Source: Thermoplasmatota archaeon
Lineage (GTDB): Archaea > Thermoplasmatota > Thermoplasmata > Halarchaeoplasmatales > Halarchaeoplasmataceae
DNA length: 64,000 nt
Direction: 5' to 3'
NCBI GenBank assembly: GCA_051745305.1
Contig: JBNJDY010000001.1
Location: 2,065-66,064 of the forward strand
The notes below the pieces were generated by a model. It had not been told where the DNA came from. It saw only the letters and a list, made by a program, of their open reading frames with translations, and did not search any database. Shown piece by piece: positions 1 to 57,533 of this stretch (positions are counted from its first letter, which is position 1; each line of letters starts with the position of its first letter). The translations under genes and the position numbers were made by a program.

Positions 1-1880
1 ATTCTGAGGACCAGATCAAACCTAAAATACACGATGGGTATGTAGTATGGGAGGACTATACAGATAATTATTATGGTGATATATGTATCTACAACATCAT
101 TGAAAACCTTGGCCCGTACCGGATTAATACAAGAAACACTGATGATTCTTTAGTTCCTCATAGAAACCCGGATATTTTTGAAAATAAAGTTGTTTGGACC
201 GATTATAGAAATCATTGGGGTGATAGACTTAAAGGGGATATATTCATTTACGATTTATCTGTTGATAGTAACGATGACGGTATCCCAAACTTCAGAGACT
301 CTGAGATAACCTACGACGATCCTGCAGAGTTTGAACTTGCTAATCAATCCATACATCAGCATTCTCCTTCGATATACAAAGATACGATCGTATGGACCGA
401 GTATAACAGCACCAATAATAATGATATATATTTCAAAAGTATGGGAGGCGAAAGAACTCAGATAAGCAGAGATGGAATGAAAGATGATAACCCTACCATC
501 TATGGTGAGATTGTAATTTACCAGAAGAGTGAATACGAGGTAGTCGATGGTGATAGACGTAATACAGGGTACAGCATATGGCTTTATAATTTACATGACG
601 GTGAGCACGAATTGATCCGTCAAATTCCAGCAGACGAGGATAGGAGGGGACGGGTAAAAGTAAGGTTTCCGTCTATTCACCAAAACAGGATAACCTGGGA
701 GGAAAATCATCCTTCATCCGATGAGGATATAGACTATCAATATGATATTTTTTATACTGAGACCGAAGCGAAGGAACCGATAATTGAATCAGCAGAGGTT
801 GCGAACCAGACCGAAGAATTTAGCCATTCCACAGAGATGTATTTGGTAGATGGAAACAAAATTCACTTCAGAACTGAAGTCATAGATCCAAACGGAAATG
901 TGGAACAAGTAACAGTAGATACTAGTGAACTTACCGATTCAGTTGATCATATCGATCTTTTCGAGTCCCAACAGAACATCTACAAGGGTAGTTTAGATTA
1001 TCAAGATGATATGCAGGAGGGAACGTATAATGTTACCATCGAAGTATGGGATTCATCGGGCAATCGCATAGAAAGTGATATACTAGAAATACGCCTTTTT
1101 GAAGTGCCTCTCGAATTTTCATTCGTGGGTGTTGGAACTGATATAAACGAATTGGGAAATGAGACTAATTTTGTTCTAGAAGAAGGAAATAGCATTTTCT
1201 TCACAGCGGATCTGAGTGAATTCGAAGGAGAAGTATCTCGGGTATACGTTGATGTTTCATCGTTTGAATTGGATAGAAGTGAGTTCGATTTGAGTATACA
1301 CGAAGGGCTTTATCTGTATGAGTACGAATTCGAAGAAGATATTTCACCTGGTGAAAAGACTGTTAGATTTCATGCTGTGAGTAGTAGGGGTCAGGAGATA
1401 GAGAGTCGTAACTTAACGGTGAATGTTTTAGCTAAGCCTACCCAGACTCCTAACATAATCTCATCCGGCGTTGGAAGAGAGTTATCTGAAGTGAGACAAT
1501 CCATCGACTTTGAATTAGAAGATGGAAATTATATATATTTCATAGCTACGGTAGAGCATGCTGAGGACGTTTCTTACAATGTGTCCTTGAACATTGAGGG
1601 TATGGAAAACATCGAGATGATTGAAAAGGTGGATGAGAACACTTATTATTATAGATTAGAATATTCAGAAGGTCTAGAACAAGGCGAAAAAACAGCAGAC
1701 ATATTCGTTGAAGATGAATTCTGTCAAAATGTAACTAGTGAAGAAATAAAGATCAATTTTATCCCGCCTGAGGAAAGTTTACCGATGTATTACTATCTCA
1801 TACCTGTATTAGCTGTTATACTTTTGATTGTTGGAGTCTTATACTGGAAAAAGCCCGAATATTTCAAAAAATCCTATTAA
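1..1880 (+). CDS. Cell-surface protein, 5' partial. It has PD40/beta-propeller-like repeats, Ig-like repeats rich in N-glycosylation sequons, and a C-terminal TM anchor.
   Basis: Frame 3 is open from window position 3 with no stop, so the ORF extends upstream of the listed ATG at 441. It carries repeated xVVWxDYR...GDIYIYDL motifs (PD40/WD40-like), many NxT/S sequons, and a C-terminal hydrophobic helix (LIPVLAVILLIVGVLYW) followed by KK. Confidence 0.55.
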   Translation, partial: SEDQIKPKIHDGYVVWEDYTDNYYGDICIYNIIENLGPYRINTRNTDDSLVPHRNPDIFENKVVWTDYRNHWGDRLKGDIFIYDLSVDSNDDGIPNFRDSEITYDDPAEFELANQSIHQHSPSIYKDTIVWTEYNSTNNNDIYFKSMGGERTQISRDGMKDDNPTIYGEIVIYQKSEYEVVDGDRRNTGYSIWLYNLHDGEHELIRQIPADEDRRGRVKVRFPSIHQNRITWEENHPSSDEDIDYQYDIFYTETEAKEPIIESAEVANQTEEFSHSTEMYLVDGNKIHFRTEVIDPNGNVEQVTVDTSELTDSVDHIDLFESQQNIYKGSLDYQDDMQEGTYNVTIEVWDSSGNRIESDILEIRLFEVPLEFSFVGVGTDINELGNETNFVLEEGNSIFFTADLSEFEGEVSRVYVDVSSFELDRSEFDLSIHEGLYLYEYEFEEDISPGEKTVRFHAVSSRGQEIESRNLTVNVLAKPTQTPNIISSGVGRELSEVRQSIDFELEDGNYIYFIATVEHAEDVSYNVSLNIEGMENIEMIEKVDENTYYYRLEYSEGLEQGEKTADIFVEDEFCQNVTSEEIKINFIPPEESLPMYYYLIPVLAVILLIVGVLYWKKPEYFKKSY

Positions 1881-45268: not shown

Positions 45269-46282
45269 TCAAATTATAGTTTTCATTTTCTTCTTGCTTC
45301 CCCTATTTAGCCCGGTAACGATAGACATTAATTTGATCTTGTTTTTACATTCCTCATCGATCCGAGCTCCAAATATTACCCCTGCTTTAGGGTCCAATTT
45401 AGATGTCATCATCCTGACAACGTCGTTCATTTTACTGATAGAAAGGTTTGGTCCGCCAGTAACGTGTATTAGAGCTTTTTTTGCTCCGGTATAATCCACG
45501 TTAAGGAATGGATTCTCACTAGCTTCCTGTACAGCTTTTTTAGGTTCATCATAAGTAGATTCTCCGATCATAAGTGTCGAAATCCCTCCATCACCGAGAA
45601 CCGATTTTAGATCATTATAATCGAGGTTGATCAAAGAAGGAAGCGTAATTATTTCTGTTACACTTTTTATCAACTCAGATATCAAAGAATCCATTATCCC
45701 AAAAGCTTGATCCATTGGTAAATCTGGTACTACTTCTAAGAGTTTATCGTTTTCTAAAAGGATCATAGAGTTCGAATATTCACGTAAACGTCTTACTCCT
45801 TGTTTAGCAGTTTCTCTTCTATTACCTTCAACTGAGAACGGCATAGTCGCTATACTTATTACCATGGCTTTTTCCCTTCTTGCGATCTCTGCGATAACCG
45901 GTGCTGCACCGGTACCTGTACCTCCGCCCATTCCTGCTGTGATAAAAACTAAATCACTACCTCCAATGATTTTTTTGAAGCCTCCGTAGGCAGCCTCTGC
46001 ACATCTCATTCCTACATTTGGGTCCCCACCTGTCCCAAGACCCCGATTATATTCTTTTCCAATGAGCATCTTTGTATCTGATTGTATATTGTTTAGGTGC
46101 TCTTTATCTGTGTTGACTGCTATAGTTCTAGCCCCATATACACCGATTCTACTTAGGCGGTTTATACTATTGTTTCCTCCTCCACCCACTCCTATAACTG
46201 ATACATTTAAACCTGAAGAATCTTCATTGTTTTCATAATTGCTATATTGATTCATGGCAATACCTTCTCTTTGATCACTCAA
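45269..46282 (-). CDS. ftsZ: Cell-division GTPase FtsZ
   Basis: It has the motifs GVGGGGNN, GMGGGTGTGAAPVIAEIA and NTD, and a canonical T7 region. Confidence 0.85.
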   Translation of the reverse strand: MSDQREGIAMNQYSNYENNEDSSGLNVSVIGVGGGGNNSINRLSRIGVYGARTIAVNTDKEHLNNIQSDTKMLIGKEYNRGLGTGGDPNVGMRCAEAAYGGFKKIIGGSDLVFITAGMGGGTGTGAAPVIAEIARREKAMVISIATMPFSVEGNRRETAKQGVRRLREYSNSMILLENDKLLEVVPDLPMDQAFGIMDSLISELIKSVTEIITLPSLINLDYNDLKSVLGDGGISTLMIGESTYDEPKKAVQEASENPFLNVDYTGAKKALIHVTGGPNLSISKMNDVVRMMTSKLDPKAGVIFGARIDEECKNKIKLMSIVTGLNRGSKKKMKTII

Positions 46283-46319: not shown

Positions 46320-46637
46320 TTAGTCTTCCAATCTCTTTTTGTATTGATCTATCTTTTCTTTTACATAATCTCGAACAGCGTTCCTGATAGCATCGTCTAC
46401 AGATATAGAATCTCCTTCTTGAACTAGATTCTTTATCTCATTAACCTTCTTTTTTGGAAGATCGACCGTCACTTTAGATATGTGATCGGGTGCATTTTTA
46501 TTTTCGATAAAGTCAGCGATAGCGGTTCTAATAGCTGCTGACATGGTTGAATATTCTCCTTTTTCAACTAGGGTCTGTAGATCATCAGCCATTTCGTTTG
46601 GAATTCTGACAGTTATTCTTTGTGTGTCCGACGCCAT
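46320..46637 (-). CDS. Tandem ribbon-helix-helix (CopG-like) DNA-binding protein
   Basis: It has two RHH units (ITVRIPNEMADDL... and VTVDLPKKKVNEI...). It lies immediately upstream of ftsZ on the same strand. Confidence 0.5.
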   Translation of the reverse strand: MASDTQRITVRIPNEMADDLQTLVEKGEYSTMSAAIRTAIADFIENKNAPDHISKVTVDLPKKKVNEIKNLVQEGDSISVDDAIRNAVRDYVKEKIDQYKKRLED

Positions 46638-46818
46638 AGAGGCACCACATTGTTTTTAGTCCGACGATTTTTATAAATACGTCAGACATAAGGGTAATGG
46701 TTTTTAATATTTATAAAATTTTCGGTAAATGTCTGATAAGTCGATACATAATTAAGGATTGATAAATTTTAGAAAATCATCGAAAGTTTTTAATAATAAT
46801 ACATAATAATGTATCCTC

Positions 46819-49257
46819 ATGGGTGTATCAGATTCACTGATGGGTACCAACACTAATTGTAAATTTGTCAATAGATGGGGAGAGATGGACGAACTAAAAG
46901 AACATATGAAGCAAGTATTGAATGAAAATGGTAAATTTGTTATTTTAAAGGGAGAAGCTGGAATAGGTAAAACAAGGATGGCTGAGAGATTCAGTCAGGA
47001 ATGTATAAAAAACGATTTTGAATTTTTATGGGGAAGATGTCTTTACCATGAAAGTACTGATCCTTATATCCCTTTTATAGAAGCTTTAGATGAATACCTA
47101 GAAGGAGAATCTGAAAGCTCTGAATCCAATGATAGTGGATATCTAGGACTCGGGGCCAAATTTACCAATCAATCATCTTCTCCAAAATCTATTTCGCTTG
47201 TTGGATTAGGTTCATCAAAGCCCGAATCGATCGATATATCGATCTCTGATGAAAGAGAGGTCATGTTCACAAAGATATTGAATTTGATCAAAAAATTATC
47301 CAAAGAGCATCCTTTACTGTTGTTTTTAGACGACCTTCAGTGGATCGATGAATCATCTTCACAACTTCTTCACCTTTTGGTGAGGAATTTGACGGATTAC
47401 AGAGTCTTTATATTAGGGGCATATCGACCCGAAGAACTAAAAACACATGGAGAGAAAAGGCCTTTAGAGATCCTGTTGGATAGAACAAAACAGGAGGGTA
47501 TAGTGGATATAATCGAAGTCGATAGATTGGGATTTCAACCAGTTTCTGAGATGGTAAGAAATCAACTTAACTCCTCAGGTCTGCCGGAGTCGTTTTTACT
47601 TACTATATATAAGGAAACTGAAGGAAACCCGTATTACGTCATAGAAATTTTAAATTCCATGGTCGACGAAGGCATAATTAATCCGTATTCCTATAAATGG
47701 AATCCAGAAGAGGAATTAACAAATATCACTATACCAACTTCTATCAAAGACATTACCAATCGGAGAATAGAAAGATTGGATGATCTCGAAAAAAAGGTCC
47801 TCATGTACGCTTCCGTTATAGGGAAAGAATTCAATTTTGAAATACTAGAAAAGGCGATTGATTTGGATGTCCTTAAATTATTGGACGTCTGTGATGAGTT
47901 AGAGGACCACGGGATAATCAGTGAGAAACAAAACACCGATGAAGAGGTATACCGTTTCAATCACCTTCAACTAAGGCTTACTATGTATGACAACATGGGT
48001 AAAACCAGAAAACGCATTTTAAATAAAAAAATTGGAGAGGCAATAGAAGAATTTTATGATGACATGGAAGGACATTATTCTTCATTGAGTAGACATTTCT
48101 TCGAGGGTAAAGTATACGATAAGGCGTATGAGTACTCATTAAAATCTGCAGAAAAGGCTGTTAATACATTCGCGATCGAGACCGCTATAAAACGTTACAA
48201 AAATGCTTTGCAATCACTAAGAAAATCAAAAGATTTGGAGAACAAGGAAAAAAAAGAGATCTCGATCCTCAAACACATCGGAAATTTATCCTATGAAATA
48301 AGTGAACTTGATGGAGCTGAAAAATCTTTCCGATCTTTGCTTAATTTGGCTGAAAAATTAGGAGATAAAAAAACAACTGCTTATGCAATGAGATGGTTAG
48401 GACATACATATAGAGAACTTCAAGATTTTCAAGAATCTTATGATTGCTATGAAAAAGCTCTTGAATTGTATACAGAATTAAACGATAATGAGGGATGTGC
48501 TGATTGTAAGAGAGGTATCGGTTACTTGATGTGGCGAGAGGGGAAATTTGAACAATCTATTAAATTGTATAATGAAGTTATAGAGGAAGCTCAGGATTTA
48601 GATGACGAAAATATTTTGTCCCAAACATACATAGAGATGGGGAACACCTACGCACAAAAAGGTGAAAACGAAAAAGCTATTGAGTATTATAAAAAGAGCG
48701 TCTCATATTTTGAAAAACAAAATGCATACAAAAATCTAGCAAGGGCTTTCAACAACATGGGTGACCAGTTCATGAAGATGGGGGAGTGGGATAAAGCCAT
48801 AGGACACTTCAAAAAGACCGTTGAAATTTCTAAAAAATTAGGGGATAATCGAGTTGTGGGATGGGGATATTTCAATATGGCTGAGGCACTAGCAAGGAAA
48901 GGGGATTTAGAAAAGGCCAATAATTATACCTCTATTAGTGAAAAGATAATGAGAAGCTTAGATGATAAAGTTGGATTATCATCTGTATATAGGGTCAATG
49001 CCATAATCAAAAGGATGAAAAATGACTGGAATGGTGCATTAGATTCACTTGAAAAATCTTGGGAGTTTCTTGGAAACATGGATATACCCTTTGCTAGAGC
49101 GGAAAATAAATACGAACTTGGTAGACTTTATATGGATAAAAACGAACCGGAGAAATCAATTAACCAATTTGGAGAGGCGAGAAAAATATTTGAAGACCTA
49201 GGTGCGACTCAGTATCTTGAAAAAATAAAAAAACACATAGAGAGTTTAGAAGACTAA
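46819..49257 (+). CDS. STAND-class P-loop NTPase (AAA_16-like) with C-terminal TPR repeat array and no effector domain
   Basis: The Walker A motif GEAGIGKTR lies about 45 aa from the N-terminus. It is followed by the FLDDLQWID Walker B and the C-terminal half has at least 8 TPR-like repeats (YxKA...G/A...A). Confidence 0.7.
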   Translation: MGVSDSLMGTNTNCKFVNRWGEMDELKEHMKQVLNENGKFVILKGEAGIGKTRMAERFSQECIKNDFEFLWGRCLYHESTDPYIPFIEALDEYLEGESESSESNDSGYLGLGAKFTNQSSSPKSISLVGLGSSKPESIDISISDEREVMFTKILNLIKKLSKEHPLLLFLDDLQWIDESSSQLLHLLVRNLTDYRVFILGAYRPEELKTHGEKRPLEILLDRTKQEGIVDIIEVDRLGFQPVSEMVRNQLNSSGLPESFLLTIYKETEGNPYYVIEILNSMVDEGIINPYSYKWNPEEELTNITIPTSIKDITNRRIERLDDLEKKVLMYASVIGKEFNFEILEKAIDLDVLKLLDVCDELEDHGIISEKQNTDEEVYRFNHLQLRLTMYDNMGKTRKRILNKKIGEAIEEFYDDMEGHYSSLSRHFFEGKVYDKAYEYSLKSAEKAVNTFAIETAIKRYKNALQSLRKSKDLENKEKKEISILKHIGNLSYEISELDGAEKSFRSLLNLAEKLGDKKTTAYAMRWLGHTYRELQDFQESYDCYEKALELYTELNDNEGCADCKRGIGYLMWREGKFEQSIKLYNEVIEEAQDLDDENILSQTYIEMGNTYAQKGENEKAIEYYKKSVSYFEKQNAYKNLARAFNNMGDQFMKMGEWDKAIGHFKKTVEISKKLGDNRVVGWGYFNMAEALARKGDLEKANNYTSISEKIMRSLDDKVGLSSVYRVNAIIKRMKNDWNGALDSLEKSWEFLGNMDIPFARAENKYELGRLYMDKNEPEKSINQFGEARKIFEDLGATQYLEKIKKHIESLED

Positions 49258-49258
49258 A

Positions 49259-49717
49259 CTACTGGTATATCCATTCTTCTTCGACTCGAGAATAATCCTG
49301 ATAATCCTTTTCATCGAAAAATATGTCTAATTCTCTTTTTGCACTTTTTTCGGAATCCGCAGCATGGACTATATTTCTACCTATCTCTATACCAAAATCT
49401 CCTCGTATCGTACCCGGTAGAGCTTCTTTTGGATCAGTTTCTCCAACTATTTTTCTAACTATGGATATAGCGGAGTCGCCTTTAAGTGCCATAGTGACTA
49501 CAGGACCAGATGTTATGTATTCAATCAAAGGTTCATAAAAATCCTTACCCTCATGCTCTGCGTAGTGCTCTGAAGCTGTTTCTTTATCGATCCACAGCAT
49601 TTTCATGGCCATGATTCTAAGACCTTTTTCCTCTAACCGAGATATGATCTTTCCGGTTAACCCTCTTTGAACACCATCGGGTTTTATCATCAAAAAAGTA
49701 GTTTCCACTGGGATCAC
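49259..49717 (-). CDS. ndk: Nucleoside diphosphate kinase
   Basis: It has the ETTFLMIKPDGVQRGL motif and the NIVHAADS active-site His region. Confidence 0.9.
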   Translation of the reverse strand: MIPVETTFLMIKPDGVQRGLTGKIISRLEEKGLRIMAMKMLWIDKETASEHYAEHEGKDFYEPLIEYITSGPVVTMALKGDSAISIVRKIVGETDPKEALPGTIRGDFGIEIGRNIVHAADSEKSAKRELDIFFDEKDYQDYSRVEEEWIYQ

Positions 49718-49720
49718 ATC

Positions 49721-49963
49721 CTACTTCCTTTTGATCTTCTTCTTTTTGGATTTTTCTTTCTTGCGGTACGTTTTTACAACTTTTTCTTGGGCGTGTTTCT
49801 TAGTCCATTTCGTTTCTCTTTCCTTTCTCCCAAGTTTCAGCATATTCTGTTCACATTTGTGATTACAAAAATTGTAGGTTTGTCCATCTGTTTTGATATA
49901 CAATTTTCCTGTTCCGGGTTCTATTTTATTCCCACAGAAAGTACATTCCTTAGCTTCAACCAT
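49721..49963 (-). CDS. rpl24e: Ribosomal protein L24e
   Basis: It has the CTFCGNKIEPGTGKLYIKTDGQTYNFCNHKC zinc motif. Confidence 0.85.
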   Translation of the reverse strand: MVEAKECTFCGNKIEPGTGKLYIKTDGQTYNFCNHKCEQNMLKLGRKERETKWTKKHAQEKVVKTYRKKEKSKKKKIKRK

Positions 49964-49964
49964 G

Positions 49965-50177
49965 CTATCTAACTCCTATACTTTTCGCTTCCCTAGCAGT
50001 CTCTCTAAGCATCAGCTTGTCGCCTTTCTGAACAGGTCCCATTACATTCCGAGTGATTATTCTACCCTCGTCTCTTCCTTCAAGGACTCTGACTTTAACC
50101 TGGGTAGCCTCTCCGGTCATCCCGGTCCTACCTACTATTTCGACAACTTCACCCGGCGTACCTTCATATTCTGCCAT
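49965..50177 (-). CDS. rps28e: Ribosomal protein S28e
   Basis: It has the [40 protein letters not shown] motif. Confidence 0.9.
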
Positions 50178-50204
50178 TTGAAACTCCTCTTTATATTATT
50201 TTTA

Positions 50205-50570
50205 TTATTTCAATTCTTCAATCGAATTTTTAATGTTTTCTATCATCTGTTCCGCCTTTCCTGGATCCGTTATAGCCACGGATGCGGAATAAGAATCTAT
50301 ACCAGAAGCAGCTCCGAGTTCTTGTTTACTTGGGACGTAAGCATAAGGAACACCTCTTTCTTCACACAATAAAGGCATGTGTGCTAAAATCTCCGGCGGG
50401 TTAACATCTTCTGCCATGACTACAAATTTAGCGTCACCACGTTCAACAACCTTGGTTACCTCGTTAGTTCCCTTTCTAACCTCTCCAGTATCCCTTGCTA
50501 TCTCTACTGCTTCATAACTTTTATCGATCAACTCTTCAGACATTTCGAAATTTACATACATTTTTGCCAT
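50205..50570 (-). CDS. rpl7ae: Ribosomal protein L7Ae (K-turn binding)
   Basis: It has the [29 protein letters not shown]...[12 protein letters not shown] motif. The listed ORF start at 50603 is probably 11 codons too long. Confidence 0.85.
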
Positions 50571-50730
50571 TATTAACACCTCTTTCGGACGTATCGTCCT
50601 CACAAATCATCGGTATATTACCAATGGAGTAAGCCCTTTACAGAAGGTATAATATAAAAACCTTTTTCCACTCCTTATGGACTTGCTTGTTAATCCGTAA
50701 AGATTAAAGTAATTAAAACTATCTGAAACC

Positions 50731-57008: not shown

Positions 57009-57533
57009 TTGGTGCCCTATTATTTGACTAGAACAGATAGCATGGCAGAAGTACAGCAATTGATCGACCAGGGAGAAAGATTACTAAATGAATTTGATTA
57101 CAAAGGAGCCCATAAAAAATTCAAAAAGGCTCTTGATAAAGATAAAAATGCGAGGGCTCATTTTGGTAAAGCTGAGGCTGCATTAGGGATACCTGAAATC
57201 GAATCAGAGGAAATCATAGCAGACTATGAAAAAGCTATCGAATTGGAAGAGAATCCGTTTTATCACCAAGCTGTAGCCTCTTTCTGCATAGATGTTGGTA
57301 AATTCGAAAAGGCTGAAGAGCATTATCGGGAAGCCGCTGAGCTTGATCCTGAGAACAAACCTCATTATCTCTCAGAATTAGCAGTTGGATACAGATTTAA
57401 AGCTCCTATTATGATGGAGAAACTCATCCAACAGACCGGCCAAGGTGAGGATATCATATTAAGAAAATCTCTCAACTATATGTTAGAAGCACTAGACATA
57501 GACAGGGATAAAGCAAAAGAATTACTTGGTTAA
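57009..57533 (+). CDS. TPR-repeat protein
   Basis: It has three or more TPR-like helical repeats (AHFGKAEAALG..., EEHYREAAELDPEN). Confidence 0.5.
   Translation: MVPYYLTRTDSMAEVQQLIDQGERLLNEFDYKGAHKKFKKALDKDKNARAHFGKAEAALGIPEIESEEIIADYEKAIELEENPFYHQAVASFCIDVGKFEKAEEHYREAAELDPENKPHYLSELAVGYRFKAPIMMEKLIQQTGQGEDIILRKSLNYMLEALDIDRDKAKELLG

Follow-up and report, generated by a model that had tools for sequence, protein, structure and literature searches.

An effector-less STAND NTPase with a TPR sensor, encoded beside an RHH-ftsZ locus in halophilic Thermoplasmatota

The stretch of DNA analysed here (64 kb, hereafter the window) encodes a protein of 812 amino acids that combines an ATP-switch core with a TPR sensor and carries no output domain. 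On balance, we consider it probable that this is a lineage-specific STAND signalling ATPase of the AAA_16/MalT-like clade, vertically inherited in Thermoplasmatota, in which a complete NBD-HD-WHD-arm core and a TPR sensor without fused output would work as an ADP/ATP oligomerisation switch that signals in trans. Its host lineage is a halophilic, 'Ca. Halarchaeoplasmatales'-like group of Thermoplasmatota. The features of the gene and of its surroundings are collected in Table 1.

Table 1. Features of the STAND gene and its locus (window coordinates; aa numbers refer to the STAND protein).
Feature	Position	Strand	Basis or location
Effector-less STAND NTPase gene	46819..49257	+	ORF, Pfam, AF2 model, fold matches, ~110 full-length homologues
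Nucleotide-binding domain (NBD), aa 15–235	46861..47523	+	AAA_16 match, model strands, residue conservation
Walker A GEAGIGKT, aa 45–52	46951–46974	+	
Disordered acidic/Ser-rich loop, aa 96–139	47104..47235	+	pLDDT 24–34
Walker B LLLFLDD, aa 166–172 (with following LQWID, aa 166–177)	47314–47334	+	
Helical domain (HD) aa 239–283 and winged-helix domain (WHD) aa 309–391	47533..47991	+	AF2 model
Arm aa 395–450 and TPR sensor aa 453–811, ~9 repeats	48001..49251	+	
FtsZ (Tubulin + FtsZ_C)	45269..46282	-	
Tandem ribbon-helix-helix (RHH) protein, 105 aa	46320..46637	-	RHH_1, two stretches, E 7.8e-12
Conserved palindrome GTCCGACG-N13-CGTCAGAC	46659..46687	.	Divergent RHH/STAND intergenic region
Convergent ndk-L24e-S28e-L7Ae cluster	49259..50603	-	

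Architecture of the STAND protein

The reading frame begins with an ATG whose position is common to all 32 aligned homologues, and there is no longer frame upstream. Pfam places AAA_16 on aa 15–198 with an E-value of 5.5e-23 (82.7 bits, against a cutoff of 32.6), and TPR_12, TPR_1 and TPR_2 match the protein at E 1e-23 to 1e-35. At 38% GC, a frame of 812 codons with such E-values is far beyond chance, and the protein is confirmed as real. Searches with Pfam, NCBIfam and PADLOC revealed no output domain in it, be it an HTH, a nuclease, a kinase, a cyclase or one of another kind. The 14 residues ahead of the NBD are variable and disordered, and at the other end the C-terminus is the final TPR helix of the AF2 model (pLDDT 82.9, pTM 0.77).

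In this model, the strands of the NBD are formed by aa 39–44, 68–73, 166–171, 196–202 and 230–233. Among the 32 homologues, which were aligned at 30–70% identity, the residues G45, E46, G48, G50, K51 and D172 are invariant, while D171 and the sensor-1 arginine R203 are at least 90% conserved. Both patterns that characterise the NBD of the STAND class, Walker A GxxxxGK[ST] and Walker B hhhhDD, are present. The helical domain contributes an invariant GxP motif (G269-N270-P271) and the winged-helix domain an invariant histidine (H382, within YRFNH), in agreement with the NOD of the class in motifs as well as in fold; their contact with the nucleotide is predicted. An arm of three helices (aa 395–449) then leads to 18 helices at aa 453–811, which make up about nine TPR hairpins and provide the C-terminal repeat sensor expected after the arm. 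What the protein lacks is the usual terminal effector domain. STAND proteins 'generally' have at least one such domain at either end, which is thus a usual feature and not a strictly defining one (PMC6468293). The cycle of these proteins has been described (PMC6468293, PMC10427625), and from the motif conservation and the fold we would predict ligand-triggered ADP/ATP exchange and oligomerisation also in the present case.

The central TPR repeats (aa 615–714) have an identity of 0.44, approximately the same as the NOD, and this favours an endogenous ligand that is itself conserved. The Asn and Trp residues that are conserved in the repeats mostly belong to the general TPR consensus and speak only weakly for a peptide in that role.

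A Foldseek search with the model ranks PH0952 (6mfv) first, with an E-value of 4e-15 over 748 columns, and Apaf-1 next, and the fold of the NOD matches that of PH0952, Apaf-1 and MalT. A profile of the NOD only, run against the sequences of the PDB, gave nothing significant (the best values being 0.003 for Clp and 0.017 for Apaf-1), which means that the kinship to solved STAND structures is visible by fold only. The strongest PDB sequence matches of the whole protein are scaffold TPRs, for example those of LGN/Pins, KLC and OGT.

A sequence-only reading of the window had described a protein of 812 residues with Walker A, Walker B and at least eight TPR repeats, which is borne out with about nine hairpins (Pfam, AF2). 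Its classification as a STAND-type NTPase whose sensor consists of TPRs and which carries neither a fused effector nor an HTH agrees with Pfam, NCBIfam, PADLOC, the AF2 model and the fold matches, and the domain search that it had proposed as a check indeed found AAA_16 and TPR and no recognised output domain (Pfam). The same reading had placed both Walker motifs within 45 residues of the N-terminus; this applies to Walker A (aa 45–52) but not to Walker B (aa 166–177).

Locus, palindrome and inheritance

The gene belongs to a block of 13 genes, Trm56/HD … Toprim–DUF167–FtsZ–RHH <> STAND >< NDK–L24e–S28e–L7Ae–AOR, that is kept in four other genomes, where the STAND proteins are 67% (L085), 65% (L093), 49% (L005) and 48% (L086) identical to that of the window. 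The upstream half of the block is kept in L001, L092 and L006. The RHH gene, located between ftsZ and the STAND gene, is divergent from the latter and lies directly upstream of the former, while on the other side the ndk stop codon is 1 nt from that of the STAND gene; the genes around it in the window have metabolic or housekeeping functions. Compared with its neighbours, the STAND gene evolves faster (67% versus 76–100% identity in L085). Horizontal transfer was considered as well and set aside, the compositional test being negative (GC3 z = -0.4, a normal value). In halophilic Thermoplasmatota the STAND gene is conserved, has been inherited vertically and occupies a fixed place beside cdrS-ftsZ.

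These results bear on what had been claimed for the surroundings from the letters of the window. The flanks are as described there, an ftsZ cluster and an ndk-ribosomal cluster, with the RHH gene as an addition between ftsZ and STAND. The view of a single-gene insert fails because the housekeeping synteny is conserved, with the same gene order on both sides in the four genomes mentioned above, and the GC3 is normal. A variable island, which had been suggested as something to look for in related genomes, has to be given up as well, conserved housekeeping synteny across the lineage being just the observation that had been named as contradicting it. Of the proposed MalT/Avs-type architecture, the STAND/MalT-like part stands and the Avs/defence part does not, as PADLOC gives generic TPR matches only and the surroundings contain neither defence nor mobile genes. 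That the locus is no defence island disposes of a false lead.

Within the divergent spacer, which measures 181 bp in the window and 180–210 bp over the loci, the palindrome precedes the RHH start codon by ca 20 nt and the STAND start by 130 nt, and an extra direct copy of the half-site, at 46626–46633, overlaps the RHH start codon. The palindrome is invariant in a four-way alignment, in which the remaining spacer diverges. It occurs once in each of the loci of the window, L001, L005, L006, L085 and L086, always in the same position, and an extended-pattern metagenome scan showed the same arrangement in L092 and L093. In all of these eight loci the STAND gene stands opposite the RHH gene, at 48–100% STAND identity, and the RHH-ftsZ pairing is conserved. 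The palindrome is likely to be the operator of the RHH-ftsZ operon. The likely STAND promoter is an AT-rich stretch immediately before the STAND ATG, at a distance of about 100 nt from the palindrome. Another option considered was that the palindrome forms an RNA hairpin. However, the G·U pair that would result from its variable fourth base falls on one strand or the other depending on the locus, so this option was rejected and a DNA site is more likely.

The cdrS-ftsZ2 locus is described as widely conserved in archaea, and CdrS is a regulator of cell division that is co-transcribed with ftsZ2 (PMC7439475). The RHH-ftsZ pair is a locus of this type, and the RHH protein is a possible partner of the STAND protein. 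A strongly conserved palindromic putative operator at a cdrS-ftsZ2-type locus of halophilic Thermoplasmatota would be relevant to the regulation of archaeal cell division. We also note that L001 has a second FtsZ elsewhere, only 40% identical to the FtsZ of the window, beside the genes of ribosomal L1/L10/L12.

About 110 full-length relatives of the STAND protein are found in Thermoplasmatota. There are several paralogues per genome, each with its own conserved housekeeping locus, and tandem duplications or clusters of paralogues occur in L008, L088 and L091. A multi-paralogue, effector-less STAND family is hereby defined across Thermoplasmatota. It has no single conserved partner, as the neighbour genes differ among the sub-clades: they are cdrS-ftsZ in the sub-clade of the window, NTP-transferase/PGM/membrane protein in L002 and L088, NikR-FmdE-ABC in L089 and L094, and a GvpD-like ATPase plus Roadblock in L004, L090 and L091. 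The membrane protein of L002/L088 (290–300 aa), DUF4129 and STAND paralogues were searched for in the window and none was found there. A scan of genome contigs with the family alignment was overwhelmed by AAA_16 proteins of bacteria, since its two peptide patterns occur across the superfamily; L005 and L006 alone were useful for synteny, and the bacterial loci were reused for the tabulation of effector domains given below.

Relation to known systems

The AAA_16/MalT-like STAND superfamily is very large, with 95,273 cluster representatives at E ≤ 1e-30, and the window protein is an uncharacterised, fairly ordinary member of it. Judged by sequence, its closest relatives outside the orthologous group are the bacterial AAA_16-TPR signalling proteins, that is, fusions with Ser/Thr-kinase, adenylate/guanylate-cyclase, SARP/BTAD (AfsR-type) or LuxR parts, which are 21–30% identical over the NOD and often over the TPRs as well. 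They have the motifs GRC..(E).PY.PF..AL, LDDLQWAD, TEGNPFF and YxFxH in common with the window protein. An output domain is usually fused to this core: the effectors in the 40 nearest non-orthologous relatives, mostly bacterial, include Pkinase (11/40), BTAD (11/40), Guanylate_cyc (7/40), GerE (3/40) and Trans_reg_C (3/40), and the paralogue P0113 has an N-terminal wHTH (weak matches to HTH_Crp_2 and MarR_2). The best NCBIfam match, TIGR03903, describes a TOMM kinase/cyclase fusion. It scores 181 against a cutoff of 705.75 bits, with aa 10–592 of the window protein on positions 477–1047 of its 1267, so that only the central NOD-TPR part aligns, the kinase and cyclase being absent from the window protein.

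E. coli MalT resembles the window protein in that its P-loop NOD begins a few residues from the N-terminus, with an arm and then a TPR-like sensor behind it. MalT is the STAND activator of the maltose regulon and passes from an ADP monomer, upon binding of the inducer, to an ATP oligomer (PMC10427625). It ends, however, in a C-terminal LuxR/GerE DNA-binding domain, which the window protein does not have (no GerE match). The identity between the two is about 13%, the TPR_MalT model reaches 40.7 against a gathering cutoff of 45, and the window protein has canonical TPR_12-type repeats and the disordered loop of Table 1 as an extra element. PH0952 of Pyrococcus horikoshii, the best whole-length Foldseek match, is an archaeal protein of NOD, arm and TPR that is doubly autoinhibited by arm-NBD and TPR-ISM contacts (PMC6468293). 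It differs from the window protein in having an N-terminal ArsR-like wHTH effector and six TPRs instead of no effector and about nine, and the sequence relation between them is detectable in the TPR part only.

Avs proteins likewise consist of a STAND NTPase and a TPR-like sensor. In contrast to them, the window protein has neither an N-terminal effector (nuclease, protease, Sir2, TIR) nor a PADLOC match to Avs, for which PADLOC gave generic TPR models and sub-threshold noise only. While Avs genes are found in defence islands and have a diversifying sensor, the window protein combines housekeeping synteny with a conserved sensor. The RRNPP receptors (Rap, NprR, AimR) and the TPRs of LGN/Pins are without an ATPase core, and the likeness is limited to a generic repeat fold, which is no sign of a homologous function. 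Our literature search returned no specific work on this STAND family, on STAND with Roadblock, or on AAA_16 with TPR and effector.

Proposed mechanism and alternatives

By analogy with MalT, PH0952 and Apaf-1, the resting protein would be an ADP-bound, closed monomer that is autoinhibited by contacts of the arm with the NBD and of the TPRs with the NBD (ISM). The autoinhibition would be released once a conserved ligand of the cell, most likely a peptide or a stretch of protein, binds on the concave side of the central TPRs, in their groove; ADP would then be exchanged for ATP and the NOD could oligomerise. With no effector fused to it, the oligomer would need to act in trans, on partner proteins that it clusters or sequesters.

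The output, or its regulation, may go via the disordered loop at aa 96–139. This loop tips a helical hairpin (helices 84–100 and 142–163) between strand 2 and Walker B, and by its position the hairpin is the ISM. The mean pairwise identity of the loop is only 0.22, yet a duplicated short motif of the PMGL type, [FLV][PS][MLI]G[LMIF]xG, recurs in it in 32/32 sequences, the window copies being YLGLGA and SISLVGLG. In sister paralogues the same position is occupied by a domain with a predicted longin fold. The same split match is seen in about 28 of the best 150 of the 95,273 representatives and was counted toward the loop as a functional hot spot. The loop is our best candidate for an output or regulatory element, and the ISM-tip loop or longin insertion offers a concrete, testable candidate for effector-less STAND signalling. 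What speaks against this part of the mechanism is that AF2 docks the loop nowhere and with very low confidence, that the longin model has a pLDDT of 63 only, and that the insert has no sequence similarity to the neighbouring Roadblock proteins. A Roadblock domain akin to the neighbouring Roadblock genes was tried for it and rejected (nothing in Pfam, hhalign probability 1.9%), and its assignment to the longin/Roadblock superfamily is supported by the predicted fold alone. One can speculate further that this Thermoplasmatota family carries its output element within the ATPase domain instead of at a terminus, as a linear-motif loop or a longin/Roadblock-fold insert at the ISM tip. By analogy with other STAND assemblies, oligomers would then gather these inserts into a multivalent platform, with which the window paralogue, opposite a cdrS-ftsZ2 operator, would feed a cellular signal into cell-division control; we give this idea a slim chance.

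Other explanations than a switch signalling in trans have to be weighed. The STAND protein could be a signal-sensing co-regulator of cdrS-ftsZ2 that, having no DNA-binding domain itself, acts via the CdrS-like RHH protein and the palindromic operator and couples a metabolic or cell-cycle signal to the expression of cdrS-ftsZ2. The divergent arrangement with the invariant palindrome in 8/8 loci is consistent with this, as are the known role of CdrS and the many transcription factors among the NOD-TPR relatives (those with BTAD, GerE or Trans_reg_C, the wHTH of P0113, PH0952 and MalT). However, the known cdrS-ftsZ2 locus already explains the RHH-ftsZ pairing without STAND, the palindrome adjoins the RHH start and not the likely STAND promoter, homologues of 43–48% identity in L002, L087, L088 and L089 (orthologues or other paralogues) are not beside RHH/ftsZ, and an adjacency in one clade can be historical; we regard such a co-regulator as unlikely. 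Quite unlikely, too, is a multi-component regulatory module of the STAND family with Roadblock/longin proteins and KaiC/GvpD-like ATPases, the partners being encoded outside the window. It would account for the most distant orthologue clade (33–36% identity), where three independent loci are convergent with an operon of a GvpD_P-loop/KaiC-like ATPase (ca 505–511 aa) and a Roadblock/LC7 protein (122 aa), and for the longin/Roadblock-superfamily domain in the NBD loop of the sister paralogues. Only a single sub-clade shows this association, though, the confidence of the longin model is modest, hhalign finds no sequence relation between insert and Roadblock neighbour, and a search of the window for Roadblock, longin and GvpD-like genes, by tblastn and with HMMs built from the neighbours, gave none.

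The architecture shared with Avs-type sensors also raises the option of an Avs/NLR-like antiviral sensor, whose effector would be encoded elsewhere or which would act by sequestration. That the gene is among the faster-evolving ones of its syntenic block and that the family has tandem duplications or paralogue clusters (L008, L088, L091) would fit a role in conflict equally well as the signalling switch proposed above. Against such a sensor, which we consider highly improbable, stand the missing N-terminal effector, the lack of any Avs/defence HMM match beyond generic TPR, the normal composition, the central repeats that are as conserved as the ATPase core, and a housekeeping position that is fixed over deep divergence, with no mobile-element or defence neighbours in the ca 15 archaeal loci examined. 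Hardly credible, finally, is the idea that the protein serves passively, as a TPR scaffold or in the manner of a co-chaperone, its P-loop domain being structural and the switch lost. The absence of an effector domain and the scaffold TPRs among the best PDB sequence matches would suit it, but the Walker A Lys, the Walker B DD, the sensor-1 Arg, the GxP motif and the WHD His are invariant or nearly so at 30–70% identity, which is not expected of a degenerate ATPase.

Domain structure and the loop at the ISM tip

The sequence-only reading had described an open reading frame of 812 codons, which is borne out with an ATG start. Pfam places AAA_16 at aa 15-198 (E 5.5e-23, 82.7 bits versus a cutoff of 32.6) and packs TPR_12, TPR_1 and TPR_2 matches between ca aa 450 and 800; these dense matches and the hairpins of the AlphaFold2 model confirm the long TPR array noted there. 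Walker A (GEAGIGKT, aa 45-52) indeed lies near residue 45, but Walker B (LLLFLDD), also claimed to be close to the N-terminus, was found at aa 166-172. Pfam, NCBIfam and PADLOC detected neither an HTH nor a nuclease, kinase, cyclase or any further output domain in the protein, in agreement with the effector-less architecture proposed before.

For the AlphaFold2 model, which draws on 32 homologues, the mean pLDDT is 82.9 and the pTM 0.77; its parts are listed in the table. In the family alignment, the STAND-switch residues are conserved across homologues only 30-70% identical: G45/E46/G48/G50/K51, D172, the GxP motif G269-N270-P271 and the winged-helix residues F380/H382 are invariant, while D171 and R203 (sensor 1) are at least 90% conserved. 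The identity of the central TPR repeats (aa 615-714) is 0.44, matching the 0.45-0.50 of the ATPase. The STAND core is thus complete and under selective maintenance, with a TPR sensor and without a fused effector.

Conservation is poor in two stretches only, the first 14 residues and aa 96-139, an acidic and serine-rich loop that is disordered (pLDDT 24-34) and averages 0.22 in pairwise identity. The loop sits at the tip of the helical hairpin that separates strand 2 from Walker B; by its position this hairpin would be the ISM, the element that touches the TPR sensor in resting PH0952 (PMC6468293). A short hydrophobic motif, [FLV][PS][MLI]G[LMIF]xG, occurs twice in the loop of every homologue (LVPMGMVGF…LVPMGLVGF in homologue P0087; YLGLGA…SISLVGLG in the window protein). 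Of the 150 best superfamily representatives, ca 28 show the same split profile match, offset by 90-160 residues, though an N-terminal extension such as that of paralogue P0113 can produce a similar pattern. The split matches and the variable loop with its retained motif thus suggest that the ISM tip is a recurrent site of functional elaboration.

Features of the window and of related loci (L numbers, loci in other genomes)
Feature	Location	Strand	Remarks
STAND gene	46819-49257	+	ORF, ATG start, 812 aa
Disordered N-terminus	first 14 residues		AlphaFold2 model
α/β NBD	strands aa 39-44, 68-73, 166-171, 196-202, 230-233		AlphaFold2 model
Helical domain	aa 239-283		AlphaFold2 model
Winged-helix domain	aa 309-391		AlphaFold2 model
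Arm	aa 395-449		AlphaFold2 model; three helices
TPR sensor	arm to C-terminus		AlphaFold2 model; 18 helices, ~9 TPR hairpins
RHH gene	46320-46637	-	105 aa, RHH_1 matched twice
Palindrome GTCCGACG-N13-CGTCAGAC	46659-46687		pattern GTCnGACG-N13-CGTCnGAC; just upstream of RHH gene
Extra direct half-site copy	46626-46633		overlaps RHH start codon
TATA-like ATTTATAA	~46711-46718		after palindrome
Palindrome, other loci	L001 5833-5861; L005 7801-7829; L006 1462-1490; L085 5842-5870; L086 5811-5839; L092 2500-2534; L093 7007-7041
Stop codons, STAND gene and ndk	49255-49261		convergent
Stand-alone TPR protein	57009-57533	+	174 aa, 8 kb downstream of STAND gene
Paralogues in GCA_046497075.1	L085 6001-8439; L094 2102-4549		Saliniplasma MAG
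290-300-aa protein	L002 4992-5894; L088 5057-5929		same strand, just before STAND gene
GvpD_P-loop/KaiC-like ATPase + Roadblock/LC7 operon	L004 8566-10459; L090 8459-10334; L091 8545-10438		~505-511 aa + 122 aa
Tandem duplicates of STAND gene	L088 8534-10756; L091 3489-5963

A housekeeping locus with a candidate operator

The gene had been taken for a single-gene insert between ftsZ and the ndk cluster. The flanks are as described, with the addition of the RHH gene between ftsZ and the STAND gene, but the insert claim fails. The 13-gene order Trm56/HD – unknown – ArsR – Toprim – DUF167 – FtsZ – RHH <> STAND >< NDK – L24e – S28e – L7Ae – AOR is kept in full in related loci L085, L093, L005 and L086 (STAND proteins 67, 65, 49 and 48% identical), and only its upstream half in L001 and L092 (52%) and in L006 (54%, short contig). 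The palindrome upstream of the RHH gene was used as an independent anchor, with loci retrieved without consulting the STAND gene, and gives the same answer, the STAND gene being found across from it in all 8 palindrome-bearing loci. The GC3 of the gene is typical for the window (z = -0.4; overall GC z = -1.5), its neighbours in the window are housekeeping or metabolic, and PADLOC returned only generic TPR matches for the protein. Together, these results overturn the insert reading and show that the gene is vertically inherited at housekeeping loci. Conserved synteny among housekeeping genes is also what the sequence-only reading had itself named as grounds for its rejection. The protein does evolve faster than most of its neighbours (at L085, 67% identity versus 76-100% for FtsZ, RHH, NDK, ribosomal proteins and AOR), yet it has kept its full length and lost none of the motifs.

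The STAND and ndk stop codons are 1 nt apart, and in L086 the two genes overlap, which leaves no space for separate terminators. The stand-alone TPR protein encoded downstream has no relation to the STAND sensor detectable by tblastn.

The RHH gene is divergent from the STAND gene across a 181 bp spacer, and its product is a tandem RHH protein, with two repeats in one chain, rather than a single-domain small protein. The palindrome, present in one copy per locus in all related loci, is essentially invariant in the four genomes compared, while the remaining spacer has diverged. An RNA hairpin is less likely, since the variable fourth base would put G·U on different strands in different genomes; this pattern favours a DNA operator. 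The RHH gene directly precedes ftsZ, so the locus is of the cdrS-ftsZ2 type, an arrangement reported to be widely conserved in archaea, in which CdrS is a cell-division regulator (PMC7439475). The candidate operator is then most simply the binding site of the RHH protein itself, and in halophilic Thermoplasmatota it probably acts as the cell-division operator.

Relatives and paralogues

When 1.84 billion cluster representatives were searched with a profile, 95,273 proteins matched at E <= 1e-30, which gives the extent of the superfamily. Beyond the close orthologues, 40 of the nearest relatives, nearly all of them bacterial, were scanned; AAA_16 is present in every one, and an output domain in most (Pkinase 11, BTAD/SARP 11, Guanylate_cyc 7, GerE 3, Trans_reg_C 3; SpoIIE, TIR and GAF one each). 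The window protein is therefore the bare switch and sensor core of a clade that is usually effector-fused. Its best NCBIfam match is to the central NOD-TPR part of a TOMM kinase/cyclase fusion protein and scores far below the cutoff of that model.

In the protein collection searched there are ca 110 full-length homologues (~790-840 aa), with identity grading smoothly from 70% to 30%. Those named are all from Thermoplasmatota MAGs (Saliniplasma, Natronoplasma, Thermoplasmata, Methanomassiliicoccales), apart from two labelled Aenigmatarchaeota, for which we suspect mislabelling or faulty binning. The halophilic order 'Ca. Halarchaeoplasmatales' includes Saliniplasma and Natronoplasma (PMC11332174). 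The only database annotations of the family are 'tetratricopeptide repeat protein' and 'predicted ATPase', and no literature on an effector-less Thermoplasmatota STAND family was found.

The family is not single-copy. Assembly GCA_046497075.1 holds both P0004 (67%, ftsZ locus) and P0014 (53%). The window contains no paralogue. P0014 adjoins an acylphosphatase/NikR/FmdE/Fe-siderophore-type ABC cluster (periplasmic-binding protein, FecCD), and P0063 in another genome (L089) has the same NikR-FmdE-ABC neighbourhood. Further sub-clades have conserved surroundings of their own. In that of L002, L003 and L088, NTP-transferase, phosphoglucomutase and a 290-300-aa membrane protein lie directly upstream. 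In L002 and L088 the latter is conserved, has a hydrophobic, probably membrane-embedded centre, shares the C-terminal motif HHS[KR]SNGDDWE[FL]L and has no Pfam match. Besides the tandem duplicates, a cluster of copies occurs in L008, and proteins of ~1,700-1,800 aa (P0121-P0126, P0136) have two full NOD-TPR modules arranged head to tail, being either fusions or read-through gene calls.

A proposed switch and its alternatives

By analogy with MalT, PH0952 and Apaf-1, the resting protein would be an ADP-bound closed monomer, autoinhibited via arm-NBD and TPR-ISM contacts. The TPR groove would take up a conserved endogenous ligand, plausibly a peptide or protein segment since the TPR fold resembles Rap, NprR, AimR and LGN, and nucleotide exchange and oligomerisation would then follow. 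Output would occur in trans, with partners clustered or sequestered, possibly through the ISM-tip motif. We lean slightly towards this general picture of a ligand-released STAND switch signalling in trans, while output through the ISM-tip loop is much less likely.

It is unlikely that the protein acts instead as a co-regulator of cdrS-ftsZ2, working through the adjacent RHH protein. A little less probable again is that it forms a module with Roadblock/longin and KaiC-like proteins whose genes lie elsewhere: in the clade furthest from the window protein (33-36% identity) the STAND gene is convergent with the GvpD_P-loop/KaiC-like ATPase and Roadblock/LC7 operon in 3/3 independent loci (L004, L090, L091), but no Roadblock/longin-type or GvpD-like counterpart is detectable within the 64-kb window. 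The loop and this neighbour hint at a link to Roadblock/longin-type partners. The Avs-type defence reading is very improbable, given the generic PADLOC matches and the conserved housekeeping surroundings, and we give hardly any credence to a purely scaffolding role with an inactive ATPase.

The window protein belongs to the STAND class and the AAA_16 clade, and in the latter it stands for a multi-paralogue family that lacks an effector and spans the Thermoplasmatota. It would be of little surprise to a specialist; only the conserved probable operator and the insertion site at the ISM tip are mildly unexpected. It is not an Avs, and while it may work like MalT and PH0952, it is a member of neither family, as it lacks the LuxR domain of the former (its TPR_MalT score is under the cutoff) and the ArsR domain of the latter. 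The close paralogue P0113 (956 aa, outside the window), with a ~190-aa N-terminal winged-helix extension giving weak HTH_Crp_2 and MarR_2 matches, does have the PH0952-type architecture, so the family also includes transcription-factor versions.
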